Shown: positions 6,895 to 32,488 of the stretch, piece by piece
How positions within the stretch are numbered: position 1 is the first letter of the stretch
How the letters are laid out: each line of letters opens with the position of its first letter
From: an uncultured virus (IMG/VR IMGVR_UViG_3300032782_000008)
Taxonomy: Duplodnaviria > Heunggongvirae > Uroviricota > Caudoviricetes
Reading direction: 5' to 3' (one strand)
IMG/VR virus record: IMGVR_UViG_3300032782_000008
DNA length: 64,000 nt
The notes under the pieces: generated by a model
Told to the model about the DNA's origin: nothing
What the model saw: the letters and a program-made list of their open reading frames with translations, nothing else
The model's database searches: none
Program-made: the position numbers and the translations under genes

Positions 6895-8571
6895 CTACTT
6901 CGTCGATTGCACCGAGTCTGCCTGATTGTAGAAGTAGAAGTAAAGGGGCTTGTCGCCGGTCGAGGCTTCTTTCTGCAACAAGGGTCGCAATCTCTTACTG
7001 AAATCCGCGTCCTCTCCGACGTTCGAATTATGAAACCCGACCTGCAGAGCGAGGTCGCGCCGGATTGGATTTAGGTGGTTAGGACACCTAAAATGAACCC
7101 CATCCTTCGTGTACCATCCCTCGTAAGCAATCGAGTGCCGGAACTCCTGCGGCTTCTCACCGTTGGTCGTGATAACGCCGACGAGCGATGCACAGTCGAC
7201 TGACAAGAGTGGACCGTAGTCCGGCGAAGTTACGGCGTCAGTAACTCGATCGACATAGTCGTGCGCAACCATATCGTCGTCATCTACGAACGCGACGTAG
7301 TAACCTCGCGCTTTCTTCAGGAGCGCTTGGCGTTTCTCACCAACCGTGATCTCCTCACGCTCGTCGATGATGATCTCGACATCCTGCCGCGTTCCCATCT
7401 GCGCATACAACGCATCCACTAAGCGCTCACGCAGCGCACGTCGTGCTGGAAGCGCGCAGATGAGAATCGACAACCAGCACGGAAGGACGGTGAAACCAGT
7501 TTGCGAATAGGACCACCTCATCTCGCGTCGCCGCTCGTATGTCGCTTTGTCCTCGGTCTCCAACGCGTCGTTGCGCGTATAGAGCGCATCCTTTTCGGCG
7601 CGATTCCAAATGTGGTGCCGGTGCTCGATAATTTTCTCGTCGACGTAGACAAGCCGGTTCATCGCCTTCAAGACATCAGTCTGTTCGCGATCGCAATACA
7701 ACGACTTGTACGCCGACTCATAGACGACGCCGAATTGTCCGTAGAGACGCCGACCCACGATCGGTAGCGTGCACAGGTTTGACTTCTGGAAGCCGTCGTT
7801 GAAGAAAATGGCGCCATCGTCGTGCGGCCAGGCAGCGCGCGACTCCTCGATCACGCGCAGCGCCCAACCTTCTTTGACCGGGACCATGTCGTCGGAGGCG
7901 AGCATGAGGATGTCCCAGTCCTGTACGCGACCGCCGTTGCATGCTTCGACCTTGCTGTGGTGCTCGCCGACGGTGACGATTGCGTCAAGCGCGTGCAACC
8001 GCTGCAGGATCTCGGCCCGCTCCATCGTCTCGTCGTCCACATCGACGATGACCTCGAGCGTGAACGCGCAGCCGGCCATCTCGCGGTACTGCTGGAGCAC
8101 CTGTACCGCCTGTTGTGGCCGGCCGCGGGTCGGGAAGCGCACCAGCAGCCGAGCGGCAGCTGCATTCTGCGACGTGGTCGAGCAGGTCGAGAGCGCTGGC
8201 AGCCCCGACTTCGGCTTCACGCGCGGTGCAGGTAGTCCCGGCCGGCGAGCCGCGACGAACACGAGCTTGTAGCCGGAGGTCTTGTTGCCGTCGGTCTGCG
8301 GCAGCACCGCCACCGACCAGCCGCCGGCCTCGTAGATTCGCTTGACCTCGTCGACCGCGCCTTGTGTACCGACGAGGTAGCCGTTGAACGCGACCGGCAA
8401 GTCGAACACGAACGCGTCACCGTTGAAGTGCTTGAAGATGTTGGCGTCGATGTTCGATTCGATGAAGTCTGCGCGGGCTTGATCGGTATCGTCGAGCGTC
8501 TTCGTGATGTGCTGCGCCTGAGCCCCCGAACGCTCCGCAGCGTGCGCGAGCGCCTCCTCAGCCGAGACCAT
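6895..8571 (-). CDS. tandem two-domain GT2-like glycosyltransferase with an extra N-terminal domain
   Basis: Domain 1 FPTRGRP...ASDDM; domain 2 LSILICAL...GEKRQ...AFVDDDD...GEDADF. Confidence 0.85.
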   Translation of the reverse strand: MVSAEEALAHAAERSGAQAQHITKTLDDTDQARADFIESNIDANIFKHFNGDAFVFDLPVAFNGYLVGTQGAVDEVKRIYEAGGWSVAVLPQTDGNKTSGYKLVFVAARRPGLPAPRVKPKSGLPALSTCSTTSQNAAAARLLVRFPTRGRPQQAVQVLQQYREMAGCAFTLEVIVDVDDETMERAEILQRLHALDAIVTVGEHHSKVEACNGGRVQDWDILMLASDDMVPVKEGWALRVIEESRAAWPHDDGAIFFNDGFQKSNLCTLPIVGRRLYGQFGVVYESAYKSLYCDREQTDVLKAMNRLVYVDEKIIEHRHHIWNRAEKDALYTRNDALETEDKATYERRREMRWSYSQTGFTVLPCWLSILICALPARRALRERLVDALYAQMGTRQDVEIIIDEREEITVGEKRQALLKKARGYYVAFVDDDDMVAHDYVDRVTDAVTSPDYGPLLSVDCASLVGVITTNGEKPQEFRHSIAYEGWYTKDGVHFRCPNHLNPIRRDLALQVGFHNSNVGEDADFSKRLRPLLQKEASTGDKPLYFYFYNQADSVQSTK

Positions 8572-8573
8572 GA

Positions 8574-8849
8574 CTACCCTCCGTTGTTGTCGTCTAGCTC
8601 GCCGAGGTCGCGCTTTTTGCGTTCAGCCATCATAGCGTCAGCGATCTGCCAGGCGCGCTCGGCGAGCTTCTCGGCAGACGGCGTGCCGCCGTTCAGATAC
8701 GACTCGACGCCCGTGCCGTCAACGAGATGCGGCCACTGCAGCAAAACACGCATCGCTGTCACAGCATAGTTGTCATACGCTTTGACCACGTCAGACGTGT
8801 GTGTCGCGACCACTAACTGTTCCGCCATCTGCTGCAATTCATCTCGCAT
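8574..8849 (-). CDS. phage-type hypothetical protein
   Basis: DNYAVTAM...LAERAWQIADAMMAERKK resembles a common small phage protein family. Confidence 0.6.
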   Translation of the reverse strand: MRDELQQMAEQLVVATHTSDVVKAYDNYAVTAMRVLLQWPHLVDGTGVESYLNGGTPSAEKLAERAWQIADAMMAERKKRDLGELDDNNGG

Positions 8850-9724
8850 CACGACTCCTCCAACGCTTTGTGCACGTTCTCGACGAAATCGATCTTGGAA
8901 AACTCCTCGAAACCGCGATCGGCGATGGCCCTGCGCTTGCGGACGTCGGCGACCAGCGACAAGCACGCGTCGACGATGTCGGCTCGCGGCACGTATGCGC
9001 ACGCGCGCTGCGCCAGCGATTCGAGCCCCGCATCAATGCCGCCTGCCTCAGTCACTACGCAGCGGCGATTCTCGAGCAGATGGCTCACCCGGAAGATCTC
9101 AAACACGCCACGGGGATAGAAATGCAAGTTGATGACGAGCTTGCTGCGCGCGATCCAGGCATCGCGCTCGTCACCGTAGACGTTGAAGAGCCGATGGACC
9201 TTGAGCCCGGCCTCGTCGAGCTTGTCGAGGATCTCGCGTCGAGGACCGGCCACCGATCCATAGAAGAGCACGTCGATGTCCTCGTCAGCTGGCGCCAGTC
9301 GTGCGATGCGGGGGCGATGCGGGCGAAAGAGGTGATCGTACTTGTCGCTGACGTAGCCGACCGGGCACAGCGACACGTTGGTCACGCCGATGGAGCGAAG
9401 CGCCTCGACGTTCGCCACTGCATAGTCCCAGATCTTGAAGCGGTTCTGCTGCGCGTAGCCTTGCAGAAAGTAGCGCGGGTCTTTAATCGCGGCGAGCTGC
9501 TCGGCGTTATAGATGATGGTGTCGTCGGGAATCGGATTCTCCGGGTGCTCCTCCAGGTTGTTGGCCCCGAAGAGAATCATGCGCCCGGTCGCGCCCGGTC
9601 CGGCGTACTCAACCACATGCCCGAGCGCGCGCAACGCCGCCGCCATCGAGCGCATGACCTCCATGAAGCACTGCGCATGTTGGTTGCGATTGAGGCTGAC
9701 GACACCGAGTTGGAACCTGGCCAT
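8849..9724 (-). CDS. GT-B glycosyltransferase
   Basis: IIYNAEQL, IWDY, EDIDVLFYGS, RDAWIARSKLVINLHFY, FEIFRVSHLL. Confidence 0.8.
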   Translation of the reverse strand: MARFQLGVVSLNRNQHAQCFMEVMRSMAAALRALGHVVEYAGPGATGRMILFGANNLEEHPENPIPDDTIIYNAEQLAAIKDPRYFLQGYAQQNRFKIWDYAVANVEALRSIGVTNVSLCPVGYVSDKYDHLFRPHRPRIARLAPADEDIDVLFYGSVAGPRREILDKLDEAGLKVHRLFNVYGDERDAWIARSKLVINLHFYPRGVFEIFRVSHLLENRRCVVTEAGGIDAGLESLAQRACAYVPRADIVDACLSLVADVRKRRAIADRGFEEFSKIDFVENVHKALEES

Positions 9725-9963
9725 CAGATTTTCGCCACACCGAACACCGTCGAGTCGAAGGTGCACGACTGCACGAACGACACCGTGACACGGGTGTTTG
9801 AAGACGCTTTGTTATAATCCTCGAAGGAAGGCTTCTTGTTGAGCGCGTCGATCGCGGCATCAACATCGACCTCTTGCTTGACCGGCTCGCCCGCTTCGTC
9901 GATCGTTACTTCACTACGTTCATTCAAAACGCGTTCCCACTTGCGTTCTTCTTCAACGCTCAC
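9724..9963 (-). CDS. 79-aa protein ending in a copy of the capsid-like C-terminal strands
   Basis: C-terminus VTVSFVQSCTFDSTVFGVAKI matches the ends of ORFs 28344, 28710 and 31916; coupled to both neighbours. Confidence 0.7.
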   Translation of the reverse strand: MSVEEERKWERVLNERSEVTIDEAGEPVKQEVDVDAAIDALNKKPSFEDYNKASSNTRVTVSFVQSCTFDSTVFGVAKI

Positions 9964-11126
9964 TGAAAGATCTCCTCCATCACTTCCGGCTTCGCTCCTG
10001 CCGCGATGGCCTCGTCAGCGAGCTTGCGCGCCTGCTCCTTGCGGCCGAGCACCATTGCGCAGCCGGCGGCGATTCGCAGCGCTTGCCACTCACAATCGCG
10101 ATGCATCGCGTTCGGTTGCTCGCGTGCGACCCGCACCGCCTCGGCAGCGAAGAGCGCCCCTTGCTTAGCGTCCACGCGCGAGGTGTGCATCGCCAACAGG
10201 AGCCGCGCTTCGGGCATGTTCGGCGCCGCCTGTACAACCGCGAAGAGGCGCTGCGCCAGCTCGGCGTCGGTGTACACGCCGGCGTTGCCCATCATTCGGT
10301 AGTGCAGGACGAGAGAACGGGCAGTCGCTTCTGAGTCGGTGCTCTCGATTAGCTCGGCGTGCCGCCAGTACAGCGCAGCCGCTTGCAGCACGTGCGAGAG
10401 CCACCCGTCGCCCGGCTCGCCGCGCTTGTCGTCGGGCTTGGGCCACCATGCCGCGATGTTGGCGTGCGTCTCGGCGAGGTAGAAGATGTCGCCGGTGCGG
10501 TCGACCAACGGCTTCGACTCGTCGTTGACGAGCTTGGTGAGCGTCGGCAGATCGAACTCAAGGATGCGCCGCTTCTTGCGCTCTGAGTCTTCCCCCTCGA
10601 CATTATGGATGATCCGAACATCGGGAATGAGCGCTGCATTCCGCTCGCCATTTGGCCCGATCGGCAACTCCTGAATCGGTCGCTTATATCTCCACCCACC
10701 GTCGGTGCGCAGCACGCGCGCATACGGCCACTGCCGCGAGCCCGACTGCATCATCACGCAGTAGGCACCGACATCAGCCTCTCGGTTCTCCTCCAAGAAC
10801 GCGCGCAACTTGTCGCCGCCGACGAGCGTCTCGTCGCCCGAGAGCATGAGCGTGAACACGGGTCGCTCACCGTCGCAACTATGCACGTCGGCGTCGAGTC
10901 GCAGCGCCTCGTTGCGCGTGGTGGCGAAATCGATGAATGGCGCCTCTTCGAGATGCCCCGGCACGTCGTGCATGACTTCGCGCACGAGGTCCGGTGTGCC
11001 GTCGGTCGAGCCGGTGTCGACCACCGTCCACCAGTCGATGTATGGCTTGACCGACTCGAGCGTCTTCTGGAAGTTGCCGGCCTCGTTCTTGACGATGGAA
11101 ACCAAACTGAGCAATGGGCGAGCCAC
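9960..11126 (-). CDS. GT2 glycosyltransferase with helical (TPR-like) C-terminus
   Basis: LSLVSIVKNEA, VDTGSTDGT, FATTRNEAL, LMLSGDE; Ala-rich helical tail. Confidence 0.85.
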   Translation of the reverse strand: MARPLLSLVSIVKNEAGNFQKTLESVKPYIDWWTVVDTGSTDGTPDLVREVMHDVPGHLEEAPFIDFATTRNEALRLDADVHSCDGERPVFTLMLSGDETLVGGDKLRAFLEENREADVGAYCVMMQSGSRQWPYARVLRTDGGWRYKRPIQELPIGPNGERNAALIPDVRIIHNVEGEDSERKKRRILEFDLPTLTKLVNDESKPLVDRTGDIFYLAETHANIAAWWPKPDDKRGEPGDGWLSHVLQAAALYWRHAELIESTDSEATARSLVLHYRMMGNAGVYTDAELAQRLFAVVQAAPNMPEARLLLAMHTSRVDAKQGALFAAEAVRVAREQPNAMHRDCEWQALRIAAGCAMVLGRKEQARKLADEAIAAGAKPEVMEEIFQ

Positions 11127-11129
11127 AGC

Positions 11130-11687
11130 TCAGCTCTCGCGGGTCGCCGCGTCCATCAGCTCTTCGGCGGCGAGTTGCGTCGGATCAGTCACCTCGCCGG
11201 CGGCCGTCACACGCCGCTTGGGAGCCGGGCGGGCACCACCACGAAGCGGGACCAGCGACGACCCCTGCGCCGGCGGAGCGGGCTGGTCGGTACCCATCGC
11301 CCCGATCGCGGTGTCCATCTGCGCCTCGATGGCGGCCTGGTCGTCCGACAACGGCGTGCCGTCAGCACCCGTGCGCGGTCCGGTCGGCACCGGAGCCGCC
11401 GGCACTTGCTGAGCGACGGCTTCGAGCGGCGTGCCGGACTGGCTCGCCTGCGACTGTTGCATGAGCGCCTCGAAAATCTTCTTGTACTCCTGCACTGCTC
11501 GGGCACTGGTAATGGCCAGGTTGGTGACCACGTCGAGCTTGTCGGCGAGCGCGACCACCATCGACGTGAGCACCGGGTACCAGGCCGACGGATTGGTCTT
11601 CATTTCCTCTTCGATGCGAGTGAGTGCGGCACGGACCACGTCGCCCGTCAGCGCGAGCTTTTCCCTGTTCGTCGACATCCTCTTCAT
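11130..11687 (-). CDS. hypothetical protein with Pro/Ala-rich tail
   Basis: Coupled ORF with strong GC3 bias. Confidence 0.65.
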   Translation of the reverse strand: MKRMSTNREKLALTGDVVRAALTRIEEEMKTNPSAWYPVLTSMVVALADKLDVVTNLAITSARAVQEYKKIFEALMQQSQASQSGTPLEAVAQQVPAAPVPTGPRTGADGTPLSDDQAAIEAQMDTAIGAMGTDQPAPPAQGSSLVPLRGGARPAPKRRVTAAGEVTDPTQLAAEELMDAATRES

Positions 11688-12799
11688 CCTCCGTTGTTGG
11701 CTTGCTCGCGTCGCTGCTTGCGCGCGTTGAACATGAGAACCAGGGGCATCACCTGCTCCATCGAGCTGGCGAAGATCATCTGCAGCTGCCCCAACTGCTC
11801 ACCGGTGATCTCGTACGGACCGCCGGGCAGCAGCTTGTCCAGCTCGTCGACCGGCAACTGCCCGCCGGCAACTTGGAAAAGCGTCGAGATCTGCGCCACC
11901 GTCAACACGCCGGGTTGCAGCAGCGTCGAGGTGCTCTCATCCCAGATGCCGAGGAGCTTGTCCTGCTGCTCCTTGGTCATCTTGCCGCCCTCGGTGTCAC
12001 GCTTGAGGAACTTCTTCAGCTCGACGACATCAGGGTGCACCGGCTGCGGGATCACCGACTTGCCGGCGATGGCGTTGACGATGGGCGGCGCGATGGCCAC
12101 GCCCAGCTCCAACATCTTCTCGGCGCCCTTGACCCACAGCTCGTCCTTGCGCCGTTTCGCCTCACGATCTTCCTTCAGGTCGAGCGAGCGCTCGAAGGCG
12201 TCGAGCATCTTGAAATAGCGCGTCTCCATTGTGTCGAGGCGGTTCATCACGCGCTCGAGGGTGCGGTCCTGACGATCGACGATGCCAGCCCAACCATCCA
12301 CCGACATTTGGAACATTTCGCGCATGTGGCCCATCATCTGGACCCCGTGGCGCTTCTCGATCGACTGCTCCTCGTCGTCTTGCTCGATGTCGCCATTCTC
12401 ACCGAGGCGATAGCTCTGCCCTGGCTTGAGCTGAATGAGCGCGCGATCGTACGGCTCGGCGTCGCGTGAGAAGTTGATGGCACACAGCGCGTAGACCGTC
12501 GGCTTTTGCTTGACGTCGCAGTCGGTCTGCATGACCGCCGTCAGCTTGTTGGCGTCCTTGACGAGGGTCTCGCGATCGGGCTTGGAGTCGGTCGGCTGAT
12601 AGATGCGCTGCTTCAGCTTCGGCCCGTTCGTCATGTAGCCCTTGCCCGTCGCCAGGCGGACTTCGATCACGTTCGGGAATTCCTGCTCGCCGTTGAACAA
12701 GTCCTCGATCCACTCGAACACGCGCATGTTCGAAGCGATCGGGTTGACGCGGACCTTCTCCTCGGGCTCCTTCTTGTCCTCGATCTGGGGGTCGCTCAC
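11684..12799 (-). CDS. hypothetical protein with central coiled coil
   Basis: 371-aa coupled ORF with strong GC3 bias. Confidence 0.75.
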   Translation of the reverse strand: MSDPQIEDKKEPEEKVRVNPIASNMRVFEWIEDLFNGEQEFPNVIEVRLATGKGYMTNGPKLKQRIYQPTDSKPDRETLVKDANKLTAVMQTDCDVKQKPTVYALCAINFSRDAEPYDRALIQLKPGQSYRLGENGDIEQDDEEQSIEKRHGVQMMGHMREMFQMSVDGWAGIVDRQDRTLERVMNRLDTMETRYFKMLDAFERSLDLKEDREAKRRKDELWVKGAEKMLELGVAIAPPIVNAIAGKSVIPQPVHPDVVELKKFLKRDTEGGKMTKEQQDKLLGIWDESTSTLLQPGVLTVAQISTLFQVAGGQLPVDELDKLLPGGPYEITGEQLGQLQMIFASSMEQVMPLVLMFNARKQRREQANNGG

Positions 12800-13114: not shown

Positions 13115-13330
13115 ATGGCGAAACCCACGTGGCAAAAAGGGATTCCGCTGAAGACGTCGGTTCAGGAATGTTTGCGCGAGCTACTTCGCGAGAAGGATGA
13201 ACGCGAAGTAGCAGAACTGATTGGTGTAGGGAGACCCGCCATCGTACGTGCAGCAGCTGGACTGGGTCTACGGCGAGGAACAGCGTTCATGATCGAGACG
13301 CGACTCGCAGCGATGAAGAGCGCCGCCTAA
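13115..13330 (+). CDS. HTH DNA-binding protein
   Basis: EREVAELIGVGRPAIVRAAAG; similar to the divergent neighbour. Confidence 0.7.
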   Translation: MAKPTWQKGIPLKTSVQECLRELLREKDEREVAELIGVGRPAIVRAAAGLGLRRGTAFMIETRLAAMKSAA

Positions 13331-13842
13331 GCCAACGACACCGCAGCCTTGTGCGTCGCGAAGTCGACGAAGAAATCGATGTGAAAGTTCGTCGGCGTCA
13401 AGTTCGTCGTCACGGTCACACCGAGCGTCACGACGTTACCGTTGGTCGCCCAAGAGAACGTGGGCGTCATCCCGCCATTGGTGACCGTGTTCGTGGTACC
13501 CGTCGGCGTCTGCGCCGTCGTGAAGGCTCCACCGCTCGTGCGTGCCACGTTGGCGTTGAGCGTGCCCGACTGAATCTGCGAGTTGACGCCGTCGGTGCAC
13601 TCCACGGCGTAGGTGAGCTTGACCGCGCTCGTCAAGTCGGGGATGAGCGAGAAGTCCACCGATAGCAACGGCTGCAGAACCGACGCCGTCAGTGGTTTGC
13701 TGGTGAAGGCGAAGTTTGGATGTGGCGAAACCACATTGTTGAGCGTCGTCTTGTCCGAGGCAGACATGAGGCCGGGACCTGACGTCGACGAGTCATTGAC
13801 GTCGACCCAACCAGCTCCGCCTTGCGTTACAAAACGCGCCAC
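13327..13842 (-). CDS. putative spike/fibre or receptor-binding protein
   Basis: GLMSASDKTTLNNV fibre-type motif followed by a Thr-rich beta domain. Confidence 0.55.
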   Translation of the reverse strand: MARFVTQGGAGWVDVNDSSTSGPGLMSASDKTTLNNVVSPHPNFAFTSKPLTASVLQPLLSVDFSLIPDLTSAVKLTYAVECTDGVNSQIQSGTLNANVARTSGGAFTTAQTPTGTTNTVTNGGMTPTFSWATNGNVVTLGVTVTTNLTPTNFHIDFFVDFATHKAAVSLA

Positions 13843-13880
13843 GGCTCACCCCTTATTAAATTGAACCAGAAACGCCGCGC

Positions 13881-14324
13881 TTAGAGGGCGCGGTGTTTTG
13901 TCAGCATAGATGGCGCAGTCGCAGCAACCGCAGCCCGCAACGAGGGGTGCTGCTCGTTGTACATCTGTCTCGCCGTAATAATATCGATCGCGCCTTGTGC
14001 ACCTTGAACAGCACGCCCGATCATAGCACTCAATTGTGCTGCCTTCTGAGGCGAAGATGCATCAAACCCATTCGTGTAAATCGGGGCGAAACTTGCCAAG
14101 ATCATCTGCAACACACTCTTGGCTGCTTCCAACACTAGGTTCTCGTTCGAAATGTCCGGTCCTTGTCCGCTCGGAGCCGCTCGTGCAGCACCGCTCGCCG
14201 TATTACTCGCCGACGACGGATAACGCGCAGGCGGCGGAGACGCGAGCGTTCTTCCAGGCGCATCCCTCGTCGACATCCCTAGAATCTCACCCCACTCCTT
14301 GTCACTGAAACGATCTCCAGCCAT
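13881..14324 (-). CDS. hypothetical virion protein
   Basis: AAGGAGA SD; contains EILG motif. Confidence 0.6.
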   Translation of the reverse strand: MAGDRFSDKEWGEILGMSTRDAPGRTLASPPPARYPSSASNTASGAARAAPSGQGPDISNENLVLEAAKSVLQMILASFAPIYTNGFDASSPQKAAQLSAMIGRAVQGAQGAIDIITARQMYNEQHPSLRAAVAATAPSMLTKHRAL

Positions 14325-14334
14325 GTTTTTCTCC

Positions 14335-15078
14335 TTACCCTTTTTTGAAACAATCAAGCGGGTCGACGATATCCGAGTAGACGTTCAAAGGATCGGCCCC
14401 GAGGACGCCGCCGCCCACGACCTGATCCGAAGCGCCGAAGCCAAACGGCGCGCCGACGTTGTAGACGCTGTCGACAAACGGAAACCACTTGAGCGGCGAG
14501 TGCTTCGTCATCGACAGAAAATGCGAGTCGTTCGCCGTCGCGTAGCGCTCGAGGCTCTCCCACGAGCCAGCGACACCAGCCGCCTTCGCCTCGTCGACGA
14601 TCTTCTTGACCGCTCCAGTGCCCATCGAGTGCGCGAGCTTCACCAGCCGCCAGTAGTACGTCGAGCCCTTGGGAGCCACGCCAAGCTTGTCGACGTCCCC
14701 CATGTACTTGCCAATGAGCGCCAGGCCGCCGTTGATCGAGTAGACCGGATCGGTCGACAGGCGCTGATGGTCGAGCCCGAGCGTCTTCGACTCGTCGGGC
14801 ATCAGCTGGAAGTAACCACGCTCATCGTACTTGGTCGTGTCGTCGAGCTTGCCACCGGACTCCTTGGCGATCCAGCCGACGAGCAAACCAAGCGGAATGC
14901 CTGACGACTGCGCCGCCTTCTTCAATTCGTCGAGGATAGCGTCGACGCGCTTGTAGCCAGTCGTGCCGGGCGTCGGCGGTTCGTCGGGCTCGTGCACGGG
15001 CGGCTCGTCCTCCTTCGCCGAGAAGATAAAGAAGAGCGAGGCAAGCGCGCCGGCGGTGATTAACAACGGGCCGAGCAT
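14335..15078 (-). CDS. membrane-anchored lytic transglycosylase (SLT-like)
   Basis: N-terminal TM helix, WIAKESGG catalytic Glu, GYFQLMP, DPVYSINGG. Confidence 0.85.
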   Translation of the reverse strand: MLGPLLITAGALASLFFIFSAKEDEPPVHEPDEPPTPGTTGYKRVDAILDELKKAAQSSGIPLGLLVGWIAKESGGKLDDTTKYDERGYFQLMPDESKTLGLDHQRLSTDPVYSINGGLALIGKYMGDVDKLGVAPKGSTYYWRLVKLAHSMGTGAVKKIVDEAKAAGVAGSWESLERYATANDSHFLSMTKHSPLKWFPFVDSVYNVGAPFGFGASDQVVGGGVLGADPLNVYSDIVDPLDCFKKG

Positions 15079-15082
15079 GTTA

Positions 15083-15337
15083 TTACTTTTGGCCTCTCAA
15101 ATAGAGACCCATACCAATACCACCAATCACTGGACCGCCAAACAGAGCACCTATAAGTGCTCCAACACCTGTATGCGGTTTTGCCACTTTGGCGCCAATC
15201 ACTCCTCCTACAATGAAACCACCAGCAAGCACACTAATGAGGACCAGCGGTGAAGTTTGATGTTCTTCTTTGACAGCCGTTTCCGACATGCCAGTGATTT
15301 TCACTCCTTGATTATACAATCGATGCATTGTATTCAT
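15083..15337 (-). CDS. small Gly-rich membrane protein with two TM helices
   Basis: Two hydrophobic Gly-zipper helices; start uncertain. Confidence 0.65.
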   Translation of the reverse strand: MNTMHRLYNQGVKITGMSETAVKEEHQTSPLVLISVLAGGFIVGGVIGAKVAKPHTGVGALIGALFGGPVIGGIGMGLYLRGQK

Positions 15338-15351
15338 TGTGTCTCTCCTTC

Positions 15352-18048
15352 TCATCTGCCCATTGCTGCGCGGGTCGCCGTCACCGCGACAGCCTTACCC
15401 GTATCACTCGTGATCGCCTTGTAGAGCGCGTACAAGATGCCGCCACCGAGAACGACCGTGCCGCCGATGAGCGCCACGCTGGTCCACTTGATCGTCGAGG
15501 CGGCGGCATCCGCAGCCTTGCCCACGCCCGTGGATAGCTGCTGCACGCTCTCCTTGACGTCTTCCCACTTGAGTGAACCATCGAGGACACTCTCGGCTTG
15601 ATTGACGAGCTGCGAACCGTCGACGAAGTATGACCGCACGTCCTCCCAAATCGGACTCGTAGCGTCGTCATCTGGAAGCGCTACAACTTTGTCCGACAAC
15701 GCCTTGGCGCGATTGTCGAGCGCAATGACCGAGTCGTGTAGTGGAAACTCGTTCGTCGGCACGATCGCCTTGGCGATGATGTCCTGCATGGCCTTGGTCG
15801 CGCGCTGAGCGAGCGCGAGACCGTGATCGAGCCACGCCATCTTCAAGTTGTGGTTCGTCGGCTCGAGCGTGTCGAAGCGCTCTTTGAGCCCGTCGACGTC
15901 GATGGCACCGAGCACGTGACGATACAACCGCTTGCCACGAGCCTCGGCGAGCGCGACTCCGAGCACGATGTCGGGATGGACTTGCTTACCAACCACGGTG
16001 GCACCGAACGGATCTCCGCCGAAGTCCGAACTGTCGAAGTCGCTCCCGTCGGACATCGAATCGTCCATCGAACCGAAGTCGTCGACGAAGCTATCGTCGT
16101 ATCCTCCGCCGCCTTGATCGACATCTTCGAGCATCGACTGCGCAACTGCGTAATCGTCCTCCCCGCCGCCTTGTCCACCCTGATCGTCGCCCCAGTCGAC
16201 ACCAGAATCGTCACCGCCACCCCCGCCGCTATCGAAACCGCCTCCACCGCCTCCACCGTACGATGCACCGCCAGCAGGTGAAGCTCCGTACGGCGACATC
16301 GCCGCGGACGACATCATCATCTGCAACTGCTGAGCAGCCTGGTTCGCCGCATTCGACGCATTGTTGGCGTTGGTGGTGGCAGTGTTCGCCTGCGCAAGCC
16401 ACGCGGACGCGTCGGAGTTGGCGGCGAGCGCCGCGCCTTGCTGCCCGAGCGTTGTCGCCGCCTGACCGGCGGTCGTGGCTGCCTGCGCCAGCTGCATGAG
16501 CCCCATCGCACTCAGCGGCGTCCCATTCGGCTGCATGATCATCGACGACGCAAGTTGTTGCTGCAGCGTCGGATTCATCTGCGCCTGCTGCGCCAACATC
16601 ATCGCGTTCTGACCAGCCATCGTCGCCGCTTGTCCAGCAGCGTTGACGGCCTGGATTGCAGTCGTCACCGCCGACGATCCGGCGGTCGCTTTCGGAGTCA
16701 CATTCAAAGTTGGTGTTCCGCTGAACCACGCTCCTTGCCAATTACCCGGTTGGATAGCGGCAACTTGTTGCACCCAAGCATTTGCAGAGCTGATATAGGA
16801 ATTCGCCTGCGAAGCAAGAGACGAGTTTCCCGACGTAGTGCTAAGTGTATCGAGAAGACTGTTTCCTTGTTTGATAAGCTTAGATCCGCTGACGTCCAAC
16901 GCATTCAACGATTTGCTAGTAGCGGCAATACTCTGATCAGTTTGCCAACCGCCAGCCCCCAACATGCCCACTAATCTTTTGACCTGATCATCGAGATCTT
17001 GAATTTGAGACAGAACGTCGGCTACTTGCGCCGTGATATCAGCAACTGTAGCCGACGCATCAACATACGTTGTCGTATCGTCGCCGATGATATCCACCAT
17101 AGAGCCAAAGATCCCGCCAAGCACATCGCCTTTGATGGCGGCAGCCTGCTGTGTCAGTTTGGATCCCGACGACTTCAACTTCGCTGCAAGTTGCGGATTA
17201 TGCTTAGCCAACTTGCTAGCAGATGCTTGTAGTTTTTGTGCTGCAGAAGTCGCGTGTGCTTTGACCGCCTGCTTACGTGCATCTTGTGCCTTATCTTGCG
17301 TAGTCGCGGCCTTCTGCGTGCTCTTCTTCGCTTCGTCCGCTGCCTTCTTGGCCGCGTCTTGCGCCTTCTTCTGCGCGTCGGTCAACGTCGGTGGTTTGGT
17401 CGCCGCAGCGGCATCCTTAGCCTTGGCCACGGCTTTGACCGCGTCGGCGGAGGCGGCATGCGCCTTGTTCAGGTCTGCCGGATGACCCGTCTTCTTGGCC
17501 AGATCGATCGCCTTTTTTGCTGCCGATTGCGCGATGGACGCTTTCTGTTGCGCCACCTGTGCCTGTTGCACTTTGGCCGCCTGAGCAGCTGCGCGCTGCT
17601 GCGCCGGCGGGAGCGCCGCACCGCCTCGAGTGACAGGCAGCTGCCGCGCTACGGGCGCAGGCGTCGTCCCGCCTCGCGTCGTGGTCGCAGCCGCACCGAG
17701 GATCTGATAGCCGCCGCGACCAGCCAGCGCGCCGAGGATGCACGCACCAACCACGGTCGAATCGCTCGCGGTCGTCGAGCTGTCTGTCGTCTGCGGGGTC
17801 GTCGCGTCAGCCGGCTGCACCTGCGTCGAAGAGTCTGACGGCGAGGTGCTTGGAGCCGTGCTCGAAGGCGCCGTCGCGGCTGGCTGCGCACCTTGCTGCG
17901 TCTGCTGCATTGCCGCGAGTTGAGCCTGCAGCTGCGCCTGGCGACGCTGTGCTCGGAGCAGGTGCGCAGCGATCTGCGGGTTCGGCGTGACAGTGCCCGG
18001 ATCGACTCCGAGCGCCATCAGCTCCTTGTCGTTCAATCGCTCGCTCAT
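15352..18048 (-). CDS. large Ala/Gln-rich segmented virion protein with C-terminal TM helix
   Basis: ATG 18048 in an ATGA overlap; Ala/Lys, Gln, Gly and Asp-rich blocks; TM VALIGGTVVLGGGILYALY. Confidence 0.75.
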   Translation of the reverse strand: MSERLNDKELMALGVDPGTVTPNPQIAAHLLRAQRRQAQLQAQLAAMQQTQQGAQPAATAPSSTAPSTSPSDSSTQVQPADATTPQTTDSSTTASDSTVVGACILGALAGRGGYQILGAAATTTRGGTTPAPVARQLPVTRGGAALPPAQQRAAAQAAKVQQAQVAQQKASIAQSAAKKAIDLAKKTGHPADLNKAHAASADAVKAVAKAKDAAAATKPPTLTDAQKKAQDAAKKAADEAKKSTQKAATTQDKAQDARKQAVKAHATSAAQKLQASASKLAKHNPQLAAKLKSSGSKLTQQAAAIKGDVLGGIFGSMVDIIGDDTTTYVDASATVADITAQVADVLSQIQDLDDQVKRLVGMLGAGGWQTDQSIAATSKSLNALDVSGSKLIKQGNSLLDTLSTTSGNSSLASQANSYISSANAWVQQVAAIQPGNWQGAWFSGTPTLNVTPKATAGSSAVTTAIQAVNAAGQAATMAGQNAMMLAQQAQMNPTLQQQLASSMIMQPNGTPLSAMGLMQLAQAATTAGQAATTLGQQGAALAANSDASAWLAQANTATTNANNASNAANQAAQQLQMMMSSAAMSPYGASPAGGASYGGGGGGGFDSGGGGGDDSGVDWGDDQGGQGGGEDDYAVAQSMLEDVDQGGGGYDDSFVDDFGSMDDSMSDGSDFDSSDFGGDPFGATVVGKQVHPDIVLGVALAEARGKRLYRHVLGAIDVDGLKERFDTLEPTNHNLKMAWLDHGLALAQRATKAMQDIIAKAIVPTNEFPLHDSVIALDNRAKALSDKVVALPDDDATSPIWEDVRSYFVDGSQLVNQAESVLDGSLKWEDVKESVQQLSTGVGKAADAAASTIKWTSVALIGGTVVLGGGILYALYKAITSDTGKAVAVTATRAAMGR

Positions 18049-18551
18049 CGACGCACCGCCGAGATGATACCGAACGCCAACGCCAACGAGGCGACGCCGC
18101 CAAACACCGCCTGCCAGCCTTTGATCGGTGCTCCCGACCAAACCGGACGCGTCCAAAAATTGTCGGGCGCCGACGGTGCAGTTGATGTGGCTGCCGACGG
18201 CATCGCCGGCATGGACGACGGGAAGACCGACGACAAAAACGAGGTCGCCATCGAGGGAGCAGAGACACTCGGTTGACCACCCTGTGGAGCCATCACACCG
18301 AGCGCCATGAGAACGCTGTAATCGACGTCCCCCGTCGGCGTCTGACCGGCCGCCGTCTGCATGCTGCGGATGGCGGCCGCCGTCTTGGGGCCGTAAATCC
18401 CGTCGATCTTGCCTGGATCAAAACCCTTGGCCTTGAGCGCAGTCTGCACAGCACGCACGGTCGTCGAGTCGTCGTTGTACATCACGCCCGCCTTCGGGAT
18501 GCTCGTGACATCGCCGGCGAGTGCGTAAGCGCCAATGGTGATCGCTCGCAT
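18045..18551 (-). CDS. peptidoglycan-binding (PG_binding_1) protein with C-terminal TM helix
   Basis: VRAVQTALKAKGFDPGKIDGIYGPKTAAAIRSMQ...TGDVD. Confidence 0.85.
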   Translation of the reverse strand: MRAITIGAYALAGDVTSIPKAGVMYNDDSTTVRAVQTALKAKGFDPGKIDGIYGPKTAAAIRSMQTAAGQTPTGDVDYSVLMALGVMAPQGGQPSVSAPSMATSFLSSVFPSSMPAMPSAATSTAPSAPDNFWTRPVWSGAPIKGWQAVFGGVASLALAFGIISAVRR

Positions 18552-18790
18552 TATTTCACCAGCTTCTTCGTCAGTGTGACAACTGCGAAACCGATCAAAC
18601 CCAACCCAGCCCCGACAACCAACAACGCTGGTGTGCCTGTCAGAGTTCGCGTTTTGCCTGAGGTCGTGAGCGATACGCTCGCAGGACCGCCATCGCCGTG
18701 GATAATGCCCGGGATGTACGCGCCGATCGTCGACTTGCGCTTCTCAAGCGCACCCAAGACCGCGCAACCGATCGTATACGAGCTGTTCAT
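18551..18790 (-). CDS. small membrane protein
   Basis: Begins MNSSYTIGCAVLG; C-terminal TM helix. Confidence 0.65.
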   Translation of the reverse strand: MNSSYTIGCAVLGALEKRKSTIGAYIPGIIHGDGGPASVSLTTSGKTRTLTGTPALLVVGAGLGLIGFAVVTLTKKLVK

Positions 18791-19194
18791 TTGCTTCTCC
18801 TGTACGCGTCCACAGCACCTGCGACGATCCACCCGACGGAGAACCCGACCATAGATCCGATCACCTTGCCCGTCTTAGTCTTGCGCCCGCTGCTGCCGAT
18901 CAAGGCGCCTGCCACCGCGGTGCCGGTCATCGCCATGTTGCGGACGGCAGAACCTTTGTGCTCGGAAATCAGCATAGGTAAGTTTCGACCGAGCGACGCG
19001 CCGCCAATGAGCCCGAGAATGCGGTGCCCCGGAAACACCATCGCACCGATGGCGCCGCCGGCGAGCGTACCGACGTTGTCGGGCACCTCAGGCGCTTGCA
19101 CCGCGCCGATTCGCTCGAAAAAACGCGACATCACCTGAGGCTGTTTTTTGGCCAGCTCGGCGAGCGTTTGCGGCTTTGCCAGTGCATGACTCAT
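18787..19194 (-). CDS. Gly-zipper membrane protein
   Basis: Several hydrophobic Gly-rich helices. Confidence 0.65.
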   Translation of the reverse strand: MSHALAKPQTLAELAKKQPQVMSRFFERIGAVQAPEVPDNVGTLAGGAIGAMVFPGHRILGLIGGASLGRNLPMLISEHKGSAVRNMAMTGTAVAGALIGSSGRKTKTGKVIGSMVGFSVGWIVAGAVDAYRRSK

Positions 19195-19871
19195 CGATAC
19201 GCCCTCTTCGGTGCACCGCGCATGACGATATGATAGCCGATCACGCTGAGTCCAATCGCCGCCGCGCCGGCGAACAGTATGCCGGCTGTCCGCATACCCT
19301 CGTTCGGACCTTCATCGTCGCGCTGGATTTGTCCCGCCGCCGCCATCAATGACTGCTTGGCGCTGGCGACCTGCGCCGGCGTCGTCGCTTGTTGAGCAGC
19401 CGCTGCTGCAGCGTGCGCCTGCGCCTTGACAGCTGGCGGAGCGACCGCCGCGACCTTGGCAGCCGCCGCCTGAACATCCTGCGCCGTAGTCGCGCTCGCT
19501 GCATCATAGGCGGCCTGTTTCGCTGCGTAGCCTTTGGGGTCGACGACGTCCGGGCGCTTGAGGGCCTCGAGCGTACCATCGGTGATGTTCTTCCCGTCCG
19601 ACGACCAACCGTACTTCTGGTTGAACGCCATCACCGACAGCTGCGTACGCGAGCCGAGCACACCATCGTCCTTGTACCCGTCCGAGTACGGATCGAAATC
19701 CTTGTTGCCGGTCGCCAAGGCGAGCCCGTGTAGCTGCCGCTGAACCATCTGCACCGTCGCCTTATCGGTGTAGACTTTGCCCTGATCCGAGACGTCGCCA
19801 CCAATGACGAACCAGCGCTTCCGCTTGGTCGCGGCGCCTAGGATTGCGCAACCGATGGTGTACGGCGTCAC
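19191..19871 (-). CDS. PG-binding-like protein with C-terminal TM helix
   Basis: VQMVQRQL...DDGVLGSRTQLSVMAFNQKYG; begins MTPYTIGCAILG. Confidence 0.7.
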   Translation of the reverse strand: MTPYTIGCAILGAATKRKRWFVIGGDVSDQGKVYTDKATVQMVQRQLHGLALATGNKDFDPYSDGYKDDGVLGSRTQLSVMAFNQKYGWSSDGKNITDGTLEALKRPDVVDPKGYAAKQAAYDAASATTAQDVQAAAAKVAAVAPPAVKAQAHAAAAAAQQATTPAQVASAKQSLMAAAGQIQRDDEGPNEGMRTAGILFAGAAAIGLSVIGYHIVMRGAPKRAYR

Positions 19872-19874
19872 GAC

Positions 19875-20558
19875 TTACCCCCTCCGACGCAGAAGAAGCG
19901 CAACTCCCGTCAGCACGACTGCACCGCCGGCCATCCAACCCCACATCGGCACGCCGCCGAACTTCTGCGTGAAGAAGTTGCCGTCTCCCTTGCCACCGGA
20001 GAACCCGTGCTTGGCCAAAAGTGCCGAGTCGGGACTCGTCGTCAGCGCAGTTGAAGGCGCCGAGCTGGCCGAGGCGACGCCTGCGAGCACCTTCTGCCAC
20101 GCGCGCATCTTCGACTGCGCCGCCGCGTTCGACGAGTTATTGAGTGCATTCTGCGACGCCGTGTTCGCCATCTTCTGCGCCGCTTCGAGTCGCTTGCCCG
20201 CGCGATCGGCATCGAGCCCGGCCGCGGTCGAGATCGCCGCCGCCTGCATCGCGCTCGCCAATGAAGACGCTGCCGCGATCTTCGATGCATCACCACCCTG
20301 CTTGGTGACATCGAGCGTCGTCTCGGCGTCCGCCCACGCACTGTCGGCGGCGATGGCCTTCTTGAGCTTGTCGTCCTGTGCAGCGTTCGCGGCGTTCGCC
20401 GCGCTCTGTGCCTGCGCGTAGTCGACGCCCTTGGTCGCCGCTTCAGCAGCCGCACTGAAGAGCGAGCCGAAGTCGAACGACGGCCCCTTCGCCGCGTCAG
20501 CGCCCAAAATTTCGTACACGACCTGGCGGCCGAGCATCTCGTGGGGATCCGTGCTCAT
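19875..20558 (-). CDS. Ala-rich protein with C-terminal TM anchor
   Basis: GVPMWGWMAGGAVVLTGVALLLRRRG. Confidence 0.7.
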   Translation of the reverse strand: MSTDPHEMLGRQVVYEILGADAAKGPSFDFGSLFSAAAEAATKGVDYAQAQSAANAANAAQDDKLKKAIAADSAWADAETTLDVTKQGGDASKIAAASSLASAMQAAAISTAAGLDADRAGKRLEAAQKMANTASQNALNNSSNAAAQSKMRAWQKVLAGVASASSAPSTALTTSPDSALLAKHGFSGGKGDGNFFTQKFGGVPMWGWMAGGAVVLTGVALLLRRRG

Positions 20559-20884
20559 CGTCCTCTCCTCTTATGGCCGCGTCCGCGCTTGCGCTTGCTC
20601 GCACTGACCCGACGCTTTCGCTTCGATTCTACAGGTTTTTTCATGAGGCGATCGATTTCGTTCTGGATCGCTTTCACCGTCTTGCCGTGGTCACCGACCA
20701 TCGCCGCGTGCTCGAGGGCCTCGTCGCGGTACGTGTGCGCGCGAGTCAGCCAATCGAGGACACCGCTCGCTCGGTACAACCGGAAGCACGCGATAGCCCG
20801 TCCCGCCCACTTCTTGGCGGTCTCGCGTTCGACCTGCGCCTCGGACTTCTGACGCACTTCGGCATATTGGTCGGGAAGGCGCAT
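20555..20884 (-). CDS. protein with a highly basic C-terminal tail
   Basis: KRKRRVSASKRKRGRGHKRRGR. Confidence 0.65.
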   Translation of the reverse strand: MRLPDQYAEVRQKSEAQVERETAKKWAGRAIACFRLYRASGVLDWLTRAHTYRDEALEHAAMVGDHGKTVKAIQNEIDRLMKKPVESKRKRRVSASKRKRGRGHKRRGR

Positions 20885-20885
20885 G

Positions 20886-21116
20886 CTACTTCCAGCGAGA
20901 TTTGCCAGGGTTTTTTCGAAGCCACTGACGTCGCCGTGTTCTATTGCGACGTCTCACCTTTTTATTTGCAATTTTTCGACGCAAAGAGGCGATCAGTCGT
21001 TCCGCCTGTTTTTTCGTCAAGGACCCAGCAATATCCTTCGACGCGTAGAAGTGCAGCGTACGCCCGCGAGAAACTCGACGACGTTTCGAAACGTGCTTTC
21101 TCTTTCGCTTCGCCAT
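20886..21116 (-). CDS. very basic putative core/DNA-condensing protein
   Basis: Arg/Lys-rich throughout; begins MAKRKRKH. Confidence 0.6.
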   Translation of the reverse strand: MAKRKRKHVSKRRRVSRGRTLHFYASKDIAGSLTKKQAERLIASLRRKIANKKVRRRNRTRRRQWLRKNPGKSRWK

Positions 21117-21117
21117 T

Positions 21118-21465
21118 TTACTTTTTCCTCTTCTGCCGGTGACGGAACTTCCGCGCGATGAGTGCGAAACGGGCGCGCCGACCGATCACGCCGCTGCGCT
21201 TCGCAGCGCGCCGAAGCTTCGACAGCGGGATTTTCTTGTCGAGCGGAACCTTGAGCGCGCGGTGCAGATAGCCCTTGTGCTTCGGGTTGATCGCTTTCTG
21301 TACCCAGCGCTTCGTACTCCGACGTTTGGCGACGCGACTTTTTCGACGTCGAGGGATTCCCTTGGTAGAAAACCCCATTGCTTCGAAATCGCGGCGAACT
21401 GCGTCCGCTAACGTCATCTCGCCAGGACGACCAGGACGTCCTGATCGATGCTTTCGCTTCGCCAT
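21118..21465 (-). CDS. very basic putative core protein
   Basis: Begins MAKRKH; WVQKAI..KGYLHRALKVP..KKIP..KLRRAAK...GRRARFA resembles a small basic phage protein family. Confidence 0.7.
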   Translation of the reverse strand: MAKRKHRSGRPGRPGEMTLADAVRRDFEAMGFSTKGIPRRRKSRVAKRRSTKRWVQKAINPKHKGYLHRALKVPLDKKIPLSKLRRAAKRSGVIGRRARFALIARKFRHRQKRKK

Positions 21466-24868: not shown

Positions 24869-24871
24869 TGA

Positions 24872-28330: not shown

Positions 28331-28343
28331 TACAGCACCTCGC

Positions 28344-28703
28344 TCAGACGATCGCTCGCCCAAAAATTGAAATGTCGAATGTGCAGCTCTCCACGAACGA
28401 CACCGTGATCGAGATACTCAAACCTTGCTGGCACGTGTCCCAGCGGATCCCGTTTCCCAAGGCCGCTGGCCCGAAGAAATCGACGAGCGCAGAGCCGGAC
28501 GCAGTCGGGCGCTGGATTCGCTGCCCCACGATGAACTGGACGATCCGCGTGCCGCGACCGGGCGTGCTGCCACTGTCCGTCGCCATCACCTTCTCGGCGC
28601 GAAACAGACACTGCATCTGCTGCGTCAGCACGAGCTGCGTTCCGGCCTGTCCGAACGCCGGCCCGAACGACACGTCCCAATCGCGCCACTGCTGCACGCT
28701 CAT
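28344..28703 (-). CDS. capsid-like beta-sandwich paralog 3 (bare domain)
   Basis: About 72 of 113 residues identical to the domain in 31916..32488 by manual alignment. Confidence 0.65.
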   Translation of the reverse strand: MSVQQWRDWDVSFGPAFGQAGTQLVLTQQMQCLFRAEKVMATDSGSTPGRGTRIVQFIVGQRIQRPTASGSALVDFFGPAALGNGIRWDTCQQGLSISITVSFVESCTFDISIFGRAIV

Positions 28704-28709
28704 CCTCCA

Positions 28710-30200
28710 CTAGATCACCGCCGAGCCGAAGATCGTGCAGTCGAACGTGCACGCCTGCACGAAGCTAACGGTCATGGAGATCTGCAGCGCCGGCTGACAG
28801 GTGTCCCACAACTGCCCGTTACCGAGCGCCGTCTGCGCGAAGAACGCCGTTAGTGCTCCCTGACCGCCTCCGGCTGGGCGCTGCAAACGGTGACCGACCT
28901 GCACGCTCAAGATGCGCGTACCGGTGCCGCCGACCGAATCCGTCGCCATGACCTTTTCGGTGCGGAAGTGAAACTGAGGCTGCGAATAGAACGTGAGCTG
29001 CTCACCGGCCGGCGCGCTCGCTGGACCAAGATCGAGCTGCCACTCGCGCTGTTCCATCGGCGCCACGCGGCGGGAAAGCATCGGCGTTCCCTTCGCCGTG
29101 CGATTGATCTCGTACTCGTTGTACGACGTGGCGTGCTGCAGATACTCGTCGACACCGATGATGTCCGCGCGCTGGTTTTCCAGGTTGTAGTTGAACTCGA
29201 CCGTCTCGCCGCCTTCGATACCTAGCTCGTGCGAGACTTCGGCTAAGGCGAGCATCTCCTGTCCGATCATCTCTTGGTGCAGCGAAACGTCGACTTCATC
29301 GTCGTCTTCAGCGTAAAGCGGCTCGTCCAATCCGGCGCCGCCGTAATCCTCTCCGGTTCCCGTATCCGGATCGTGTGTACCGAACTCAGGCTCCTCTTCG
29401 TCCGGCGTGCCGACGCCGTACTCGGGTCCGACCGACGCTTCATTGAGGAGGTCAATCATGCTCGGCCCGGTGTAGATCTCATCGACGCTGCCGATTACAC
29501 GCGCCGACGGGTCGTGTTCGTCGTTGATCTCGATGTTGCCGGGGATATCGTCGCCGTAATCGATATCGTCGGTCAGCAACATGTCGATATCGCGGAAGGC
29601 AACTTCCGGATCGAGCATGTCCTCTTCATCGTTGTCATCTTCTTCGCCGATAGTTCCAGTGTCCGGTTCGTGCGTTCCGAACTCAGGCTCCTCCTCATCC
29701 GGCGTACCAACGCCATACTCGGGGCCGCTCGACGCCTCGTTGAGGAGGTCGAGCATGTTTGGTCCGGTATAGATCTCGTCGACGCTGCCGATCGTGCCGA
29801 AGTCCGGTGCATGTGTTCCGAAATCTGGCTCATGCGTGCCGAGATCCATCCCAATCACGCGCGCCGACGGATTATGTTCATCGTTGATTTCGATATCACC
29901 AGGGATGTCGTCACCAAAATCGATGTCGTCGGTCAGGAGCATGTCGATGTCACGGAAGGCAACTTCCGGATCGAGCATGTCCTCTTCGTCTTCGTCGGGC
30001 GTGGCGGCATCAGCGTTCTCAGGCTGAGCGTCGAGCCCGTCGACCGACGTGTTGACTCCAAAATCCGGTGCGTGCGTTCCGAAACGAGGTGTGTGCGTAC
30101 CGAAGTGAATGCCTTCGAAGTCTCCAGCCAGAACGTCTTCCACGAAGGCCGAGTCCGGGAGCGCCTCGATCACATCGTTGATGTCGTCCAAGTCGCTCAC
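28710..30200 (-). CDS. capsid-like paralog 2 with a long acidic repetitive N-terminal extension
   Basis: GTG 30200 with AAGGAGA SD; C-terminal PQFHFRTEKVMATDS...ALGNG.LWDTCQ...TVSFVQACTFD. Confidence 0.75.
   Translation of the reverse strand: MSDLDDINDVIEALPDSAFVEDVLAGDFEGIHFGTHTPRFGTHAPDFGVNTSVDGLDAQPENADAATPDEDEEDMLDPEVAFRDIDMLLTDDIDFGDDIPGDIEINDEHNPSARVIGMDLGTHEPDFGTHAPDFGTIGSVDEIYTGPNMLDLLNEASSGPEYGVGTPDEEEPEFGTHEPDTGTIGEEDDNDEEDMLDPEVAFRDIDMLLTDDIDYGDDIPGNIEINDEHDPSARVIGSVDEIYTGPSMIDLLNEASVGPEYGVGTPDEEEPEFGTHDPDTGTGEDYGGAGLDEPLYAEDDDEVDVSLHQEMIGQEMLALAEVSHELGIEGGETVEFNYNLENQRADIIGVDEYLQHATSYNEYEINRTAKGTPMLSRRVAPMEQREWQLDLGPASAPAGEQLTFYSQPQFHFRTEKVMATDSVGGTGTRILSVQVGHRLQRPAGGGQGALTAFFAQTALGNGQLWDTCQPALQISMTVSFVQACTFDCTIFGSAVI
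29357..29995 (-). repeat. internal duplication of a ~95-aa acidic unit
   Basis: EEDMLDPEVAFRDIDMLLTDDID..ARVIG twice and GSVDEIYTGP..EPEFGTH twice, similar at DNA level. Confidence 0.9.
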
Positions 30201-30211
30201 GAAAAATCTCC

Positions 30212-30240
30212 TTGATTTACATTTGACCACGAAGTAATAT
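30212..30240 (+). promoter_or_regulatory. promoter, probably leaderless, for the homing endonuclease
   Basis: TTGATT-17-TAATAT ending 7 nt before ATG 30248. Confidence 0.55.
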
Positions 30241-30247
30241 TAACTCC

Positions 30248-31915: not shown

Positions 31916-32488
31916 TTAGCCGACCACGGCTTTGCCAAACACGGTCGCGTCGAAGGTGCACGCCTGGATGAACGACACCGTGATCGCGATCGAGAGGGCC
32001 TGCTGGCAGGTATCCCACTTGATGCCGTTGCCGAGCGCCGTCTGCGCGAAGAACGCCGTCAGCGAACCACCGCCGGTCGCCGGGCGCTGCAGGCGCTGAC
32101 CGATCAGCACCTGGGTGATGCGGGTGCCGTAGCCGGCCGGCGAGCCCGAGTCGGTCGCCATGACCTTCTCGCCGCGGAAAAGGCACTGCGGCGCGACGGT
32201 GATGATGGTGGTGGTGCCGGCCGCGCCGGACACCGGGCCGAAGGAGAGATCCCAGTCGCGGGCCTTCTGCAGCGGCTGACGGTGGGTCACCGGCCGCGAC
32301 ATGGCGGCACGCTTGGCCATGTACTGGGTGAACGAAGGGCTCTTGGCCAGCAGCTCGTTGGCCGCGCCGAGCACGTCGTAGCCGTCGCCCATGACGGGCA
32401 TCAGGCTGTCGCCGTGCGCCGAGCCGCCGCGGGTCTGCTCGCCCACGATCTCCGTCCAACCGTCGTCGCCGATCACGAGATTGCTCAT
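31916..32488 (-). CDS. putative major capsid protein (single jelly-roll candidate)
   Basis: Very strong GC3 bias, GGAG SD, near the start of the structural operon, beta-strand patterning, two paralogs downstream. Confidence 0.6.
   Translation of the reverse strand: MSNLVIGDDGWTEIVGEQTRGGSAHGDSLMPVMGDGYDVLGAANELLAKSPSFTQYMAKRAAMSRPVTHRQPLQKARDWDLSFGPVSGAAGTTTIITVAPQCLFRGEKVMATDSGSPAGYGTRITQVLIGQRLQRPATGGGSLTAFFAQTALGNGIKWDTCQQALSIAITVSFIQACTFDATVFGKAVVG

Follow-up and report, generated by a model that had tools for sequence, protein, structure and literature searches.

A mini-ORF of 79 amino acids with a GTG start codon lies on the minus strand at 9724..9963 of the window, that is, the whole 64,000-nucleotide stretch of viral DNA analysed here. 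Three segments can be distinguished in it: residues 1–58 (9790..9963), which we assign to a diverged N-terminal arm of a putative major capsid protein (MCP), residues 59–75 (9739..9789), corresponding to the jelly-roll strands H and I at MCP residues 169–185, and the last four codons with the stop codon (9724..9738), which deviate at two positions from the A family described below. Inspection of the sequence revealed a Shine-Dalgarno-like GGAGGAG at 9971..9977 on the same strand, within the 3' end of the upstream gene and 7 nucleotides 5' of the start codon. The ORF overlaps the stop codon of the upstream gene in GTGA and the start codon of the downstream gene in TGATG. Its codon score is 0.36, compared with 0.47 ± 0.20 for 79-codon windows of real genes, and the remaining five frames at the locus score negatively. 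The mini-ORF is thus most likely translated, as indicated by the Shine-Dalgarno-like element, the overlaps, and the codon use; neither a disabled frame nor a loss of translation signals, by which a pseudogene could be recognized, was found. We identified 0 promoter-like and 0 terminator-like sites between 8500 and 13400. A CRISPR-like or repeat element was considered for the locus and discarded because there are no notable repeats around the mini-ORF.

Both neighbouring genes are encoded on the minus strand. The upstream gene (9960..11126) is GT2-like with a GmaR/SunS-like N-terminal domain, matching a PHROG glycosyltransferase at 1.6e-16 and GmaR at 8.4e-6. The downstream gene (8849..9724) is a putative glycosyltransferase by a weak assignment: it has no match in Pfam, PHROG, NCBIfam, or PDB, and its homolog matches Glyco_trans_1_2 with an E-value of 0.028, below the cutoff. 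The initial annotation placed the mini-ORF between two glycosyltransferase genes to which it is coupled. The overlaps and the GT2-like upstream gene agree with this description, whereas the downstream gene is only weakly glycosyltransferase-like.

The C-terminal end of the mini-protein resembles three jelly-roll paralogs encoded on the minus strand of the same window. Paralog A (31916..32488) is a 190-residue putative MCP with a single jelly roll and the likely source of the mini-ORF, paralog B (28710..30230) consists of acidic repeats, a diverged arm, and a jelly-roll domain, and paralog C (28344..28703) is a jelly-roll domain alone. The tail 16-mer, TVSFVQSCTFDSTVFG, is identical to A at 13/16 amino acids, as had been pointed out for this locus and is borne out by direct comparison, and at 41/48 nucleotides; the corresponding counts are 13/16 and 36/48 for B, and 12/16 and 34/48 for C. 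Within the window, tblastn returned E-values of 1e-6, 3e-6, and 2e-5 for A, B, and C, followed by the next match at 0.20. The described position of the tail, at the C-terminus and distant from the capsid genes, also holds, with a separation of 18.4–22 kb. The C-terminal hairpin is homologous to that of the MCP gene family (32 bits, E 4e-9), and the tail common to A and the mini-protein comprises strand H (167–173) and most of strand I (177–188). Over 17 codons, it is nearest to gene A of its own virus, with 43/51 identical nucleotides being the best among 19 tails (next 42/51), and against outgroups, it has diverged no further than A itself. Family-allowed residues occupy 16/17 tail positions, and the tail identity is 14/21 (family median 16). 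The residues at the positions corresponding to MCP 181, 186, and 188 are found in 0/117 A-type sequences, position 186 differing also in B and C, and the similarity to the MCP falls off after G185. The tail differs from A with a pS of 0.28 and a pN of 0.12, based on small counts (4.5 nonsynonymous and 3.5 synonymous), as compared with 0.42 and 0.09 between A and an 81% identical relative, and the counts are too small to separate purifying selection from recent deletion or gene conversion.

We identified 172 homologs of A at E ≤ 0.001 among 338 candidates. The AlphaFold model of A, built with 117 sequences, has a low-confidence arm (1–70) including a helix (51–64), followed by a confident beta-barrel. 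Its best VIA-align match is SPV1 (6oj0), with a Z-score of 8.2 and an r.m.s.d. of 2.8 over 110 aligned residues; tied matches are HHIV-2 (7.7), HCIV-1 (7.4), and P23-77 VP17 (7.1), as well as cellular jelly rolls. A thus folds like the single jelly-roll (SJR) MCPs of SPV1 (VP4, Portogloboviridae) and of HHIV-2, HCIV-1, and P23-77 (Singelaviria/Helvetiavirae), even though a Z-score of 8.2 is marginal for assignment to the Portogloboviridae/Singelaviria type of MCP. Foldseek found no PDB entry for A at E ≤ 0.001. A has no sequence match in PDB, Pfam, or PHROGs and none among INPHARED phages, and the ESM Atlas matches are viral clusters. Considering the fold, the gene position, a GC3 of 0.93, and the lack of an HK97 module among the 50 ORFs scanned, we infer A to be the major capsid protein. 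The FtsK-HerA packaging ATPase is a trait of Helvetiavirae that is absent in SPV1, vertical capsomer geometry being another trait of the group, and no match to this ATPase was detected among the 50 ORFs scanned. This virus differs from known SJR viruses in its contigs of 72–112 kb, which lack a sequence match in the libraries. B and C are present in some relatives only, so that the number of SJR paralogs varies. Duplication of MCPs has been described for the SJR capsids of SPV1 and Helvetiavirae (PMC8812541). These known duplicates have full folds, whereas the mini-protein has two of the eight strands.

The mini-protein lacks the eight-strand capsid barrel: strands H and I alone match it, and the body HMM of the jelly roll did not detect the mini-protein. 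Its own structure model has low confidence (pTM 0.21), with three helices, no strands, and an unstructured tail. Having failed the fold test, the mini-protein can be regarded as a paralog by descent and not as a capsid protein. The prediction of a complex between A (40–190) and the mini-protein scored 0.00 and gave no answer, which we treat as neutral. Searches with the mini-protein returned no family match in Pfam or PHROGs, only a match below the cutoff in NCBIfam, and no usable match in the ESM Atlas.

Beyond the tail, the N-terminus described previously as unrelated and charged turned out to align end to end with the N-terminal arm of the MCP. The global score of the mini-protein arm against 29 family arms is 17.4, higher than the 11.8 obtained for the arm of the true paralog B, and this score was equalled by 1/1,303 windows from the genes of the window but by none of 1,015 other windows and none of 2,000 shuffles. 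Residues 39–50 of the mini-protein match A 45–56 (the helix block), and W9..E15-R16 correspond to A W11..E17..R20, so that the two blocks appear in the correct order and spacing. In a MAFFT alignment, W9, E15, R16, P45, and F47 fall on near-invariant family columns. A 12-column PSSM of the helix block gave 14.9 bits, reached by 0/9,381 and 1/183,542 control 12-mers and higher than the best block of 6/7 B-type paralogs; the block boundaries were picked after inspection, and other boundaries gave 9.5–14.2 bits with 0–1 controls. Pairwise local and global arm scores were equalled by 3 and 2 of 5,000 shuffles, respectively, and the arm HMM score by 51/5,000. With hhalign, the N-terminus again matched the arm at the helix block with an E-value of 0.07. 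An alternative register from the hhalign comparison of the whole mini-protein, pairing residues 37–58 with MCP 148–168, was rejected as it scored 9.1 bits, as opposed to 16.9 for the arm. Real windows reached the local arm scores more often (20/661 and 17/282; p 0.01–0.07), several of them being proteins of the same virus with a similar motif, and the last arm block (MCP 59–65) has no support by itself in the mini-protein. Taken together, the alignments make it very probable that the N-terminus is homologous to the MCP arm. The mini-protein probably reads as an internally deleted MCP paralog, with MCP residues of about 1–65 joined in frame to about 169–189 and strands B–G gone.

The arm has diverged considerably. 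Its identity is 20/58 (34%), below the family minimum of 43% and median of 59%, and 0/4 of the [IVL][IVLM]G motifs of the arm are kept, including G41, which is found in 117/117 family sequences. The difference in identity between arm and tail is not significant (Fisher p 0.14), and the arm block differs from A with a pS of 0.54 and a pN of 0.36. As a separate observation, the MCP arm carries four such phi-phi-Gly motifs, and the extended motif [IVL][IVLM]G[ADES] was counted 30 times in 5,923 amino acids of structural ORFs (13327–33175) and 6 times in 9,056 amino acids elsewhere. The motif may serve as a signal for sorting or for cleavage during maturation, and the gene it addresses could be the transglutaminase-like one at 27554–28363 (Pfam E 0.17).

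An alternative is that recombination attached 51 bp of gene A to the end of an accessory ORF with no relation to it, the arm resemblance being due to chance. The younger age of the tail by synonymous distance, the loss of similarity after G185, the mobility of the tail DNA in relatives, and the modest local arm tests would fit such a graft. The collinearity of the arm from end to end, equalled by 1/2,318 real control windows, and the two blocks in the right order and spacing argue against it, and we consider this explanation improbable. The initial annotation had listed a recombination remnant among its options; this option fits best, albeit as a duplicate of the whole MCP gene with an internal deletion rather than as a grafted tail.

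The mini-ORF is hardly conserved. Among proteins of 43–139 amino acids, the mini-protein itself was the sole candidate, and phmmer against 1.84 billion representatives returned the mini-protein and two repeat proteins (P0122 and P0123), which were discarded as homologs, and no ortholog. Its cluster contains 2 records that differ at the start residue alone, one from a 72-kb and the other from a 112-kb contig. In viral_contigs, searches with A, the mini-protein, the pattern of its tail, and the two flanking genes found no relative. Because most of the 43 metagenome loci end before the glycosyltransferase cluster, the synteny comparison is limited to one genome, G001:C43 (L048), whose MCP is 55% identical. 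There, both flanking genes are kept at 39–40% identity, and the slot between them contains unrelated ORFs of 58 and 183 amino acids and no mini-ORF. A further contig, from X2 (depth 3.9), is 92% identical over 9960–10367, whereas the 76 bases at its beginning show no alignment with the mini-ORF, which is a weak hint of the same kind. The lack of conservation in relatives that would characterize a pseudogene was therefore observed, as judged from one syntenic genome and the weak hint from X2. The slot is variable between strains, as seen in one distant relative and hinted at in a close one. Another small ORF between the glycosyltransferase genes (8574–8834, minus strand) is also missing in L048, and the alignment of an X2 contig stops at 8847.

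As the mini-ORF is known from essentially one sample, an assembly artefact was also considered. A 27-kb Logan contig with a depth of 11.6 spans 8000–12000 with 0 differences, which shows that the mini-ORF is not an assembler chimera, even if this contig may come from the source sample. A contig of depth 11.9 matching the tail exists beside the contig of depth 11.6, and the tail differs from A at 8/51 nucleotides. An artefact is thus extremely unlikely.

Another option of the initial annotation was a strand-donating adaptor, in which the tail would dock on capsomers and the N-terminus would recruit the flanking glycosyltransferases. Donor-strand complementation is known from chaperone-usher pilins, which the mini-protein resembles in that it has a free piece of beta-strand similar to part of a beta-sandwich. 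Unlike in the pilins, an acceptor lacking strands H–I was not found in the 64 kb of the 72–112-kb contig that the window covers, where every jelly-roll body identified has its own tail. The position and translational coupling among glycosyltransferase-like genes are in line with the adaptor, as is the resemblance of the upstream gene to protein/peptide glycosyltransferases, and phage glycosyltransferases can glycosylate capsids (PMC12363180). Apart from position, however, the adaptor found no support: G001:C43 retains both flanking genes without the mini-ORF, the N-terminus appears to be derived from the capsid protein rather than being a separate glycosyltransferase-binding module, and small ORFs between the glycosyltransferase genes vary by genome, as exemplified by 8574–8834. 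The search for the ORF in relatives, proposed as a check of the adaptor, yielded no ortholog and a syntenic relative with other ORFs, which speaks against a conserved adaptor. We consider it very unlikely because the glycosyltransferases persist without the mini-ORF and no tail-less acceptor was found in the window.

We favour, with a probability of roughly 0.5, the interpretation that the mini-ORF arose by duplication of the capsid gene and persists as a translated relic in a slot of variable content. A duplicate of gene A would have entered this slot, which belongs to the glycan operon, and an in-frame deletion would have removed the core, about residues 66–168 (strands B–G), with the exact junction deduced from the alignment. 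The N-terminal arm would thereby be joined to the last beta-hairpin, a step well supported by the alignment, and the product is most likely translated but unable to form a jelly roll. The frame presumably stays open in the decaying mini-ORF mainly because the coupling would serve ribosome passage from the upstream glycosyltransferase gene to the downstream gene. The tail could still be MCP-like because of a recent deletion or because recombination with gene A has refreshed it. The homology, the variability of the slot, and the loss of the motifs were observed; that the mini-ORF is translated, in which order the events took place, and that coupling is beneficial are the deduced parts of this proposal. 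The signs of decay are the four lost glycine motifs, the 34% identity of the arm, the residues at MCP 186 and 188 that are absent from 117 sequences, and the low-confidence model with its unstructured tail. Several observations are at odds with a relic. The open frame across several indels, the intact overlaps, and the coding-like codon score suggest long selection for translation, and the tail has mostly family-allowed residues and a low pN relative to pS. The arm homology is also weak in local tests such as hhalign.

In relatives, the DNA of the H–I hairpin is a target of mobility. At L024:2675-2978 (plus strand), a group I intron (70.8 bits) splits the MCP gene within its final strand, and at L017:1451-1513 (minus strand), eight codons of the MCP tail recur in inverted orientation just upstream of a homing-endonuclease-like gene. 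A blastn search of 41 loci found no extra DNA copy of the tail longer than 13 nucleotides, and this search missed the diverged L017 piece.

The retained termini could also be functional. The arm helix and the H–I hairpin might bind the MCP and thereby adjust, terminate, or poison the assembly of the shell, the mini-protein being either present in small amounts in the virion or used as a decoy against relatives that co-infect the host; the loss of the arm glycines could, speculatively, confer resistance to maturation cleavage. Small effectors acting on the shell assembly of another protein include P4 Sid, PICI CpmAB, PLE TcaP, and transdominant truncated capsid proteins. The mini-protein would be analogous to P4 Sid, CpmAB, and TcaP only if it acted in this manner, and unlike them, it derives from the capsid of its own virus. 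Both MCP termini are kept in order, the tail identity is within the family range, and the ORF is open, coupled, and coding-like, all of which favour a role in assembly. To look for similar proteins, a tail profile was searched against proteins of 13–88 amino acids, which gave 5 matches among 187 candidates (the mini-protein, P0126, P0124, P0125, and P0127); a profile made from the tail will necessarily recover tails. P0125 and P0127 resemble jelly rolls truncated at the N-terminus, P0124 is probably the broken end of a paralog B, and the three were rejected as coreless proteins. P0126 is a singleton of 72 amino acids with two internal deletions between MCP pieces, its layout being an MCP-like N-terminal motif, a pre-tail piece, a 10-residue gap, and the hairpin. 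The N-terminal motif scores 9.2 bits, reached by 2/9,346 controls and 6/600 shuffles, and the hairpin matches with an hhalign E-value of 5.7e-14. Because P0126 keeps other MCP pieces than the mini-protein, it represents a separate event. Its independent, similar layout weighs against a relic and makes an assembly role somewhat more plausible. On the other hand, the mini-protein and P0126 are both effectively singletons, and the different pieces kept, with 5/187 candidates against 172 MCP clusters, suggest sporadic origins. The mini-protein has lost the conserved glycines of the arm as well as two residues at the C-terminus, and the model of the intact MCP predicts no empty H–I groove. We regard the assembly-modulating peptide as the main rival of the relic, though less likely than the relic. 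The broader idea that large SJR dsDNA viruses repeatedly make coreless decoys or regulators of 70–80 amino acids, of which the mini-protein and P0126 would be two independent cases, is still more doubtful. A literature search, with most subscription papers outside its coverage, found nothing on core-deleted capsid mini-proteins or on this virus group.

Several further features were noticed in the virus group. It comprises SJR dsDNA viruses with 172 MCP clusters and contigs of up to 120 kb, is widespread (the window and L001-L044), carries SLT and peptidoglycan-binding genes together with a glycan cluster, and is not matched by anything in viral_contigs, INPHARED, PHROGs, Pfam, or the sequences of the PDB. 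A free-standing HTH/endonuclease gene (30248–31405, plus strand) directly follows the MCP gene in antisense orientation, and likewise in L001, L017, L018, L023, L024, L028, L030, L031, and L041. Homologs of the transglutaminase-like gene at 27554–28363 are split in L011, L012, L018, L022, and L041 near residue 128–129, at a Cys motif, by inserts of about 380–1,100 bp; since no Rfam intron was matched in the four inserts scanned, they are possibly inteins. A distant jelly-roll-like ORF of 128 amino acids is found at L031:3567-3953 (plus strand), outside the structural module, with 17.6 bits to the body profile, and a stop codon interrupts the MCP frame in the middle of the domain at L014:625-1335 (plus strand).

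If the mini-ORF is a relic, it provides a clear snapshot of the birth and decay of a capsid gene in a group absent from the libraries searched, and illustrates how coupling within an operon can keep an ORF open. If it is a decoy, it would show a new way in which an inhibitor of assembly can arise, made from the virus's own capsid termini, and would indicate which contacts matter for assembly in a capsid of unsolved structure. The virus group itself, combining an SPV1-like capsid fold with peptidoglycan hydrolases and a glycan cluster, may merit more attention than the mini-gene.
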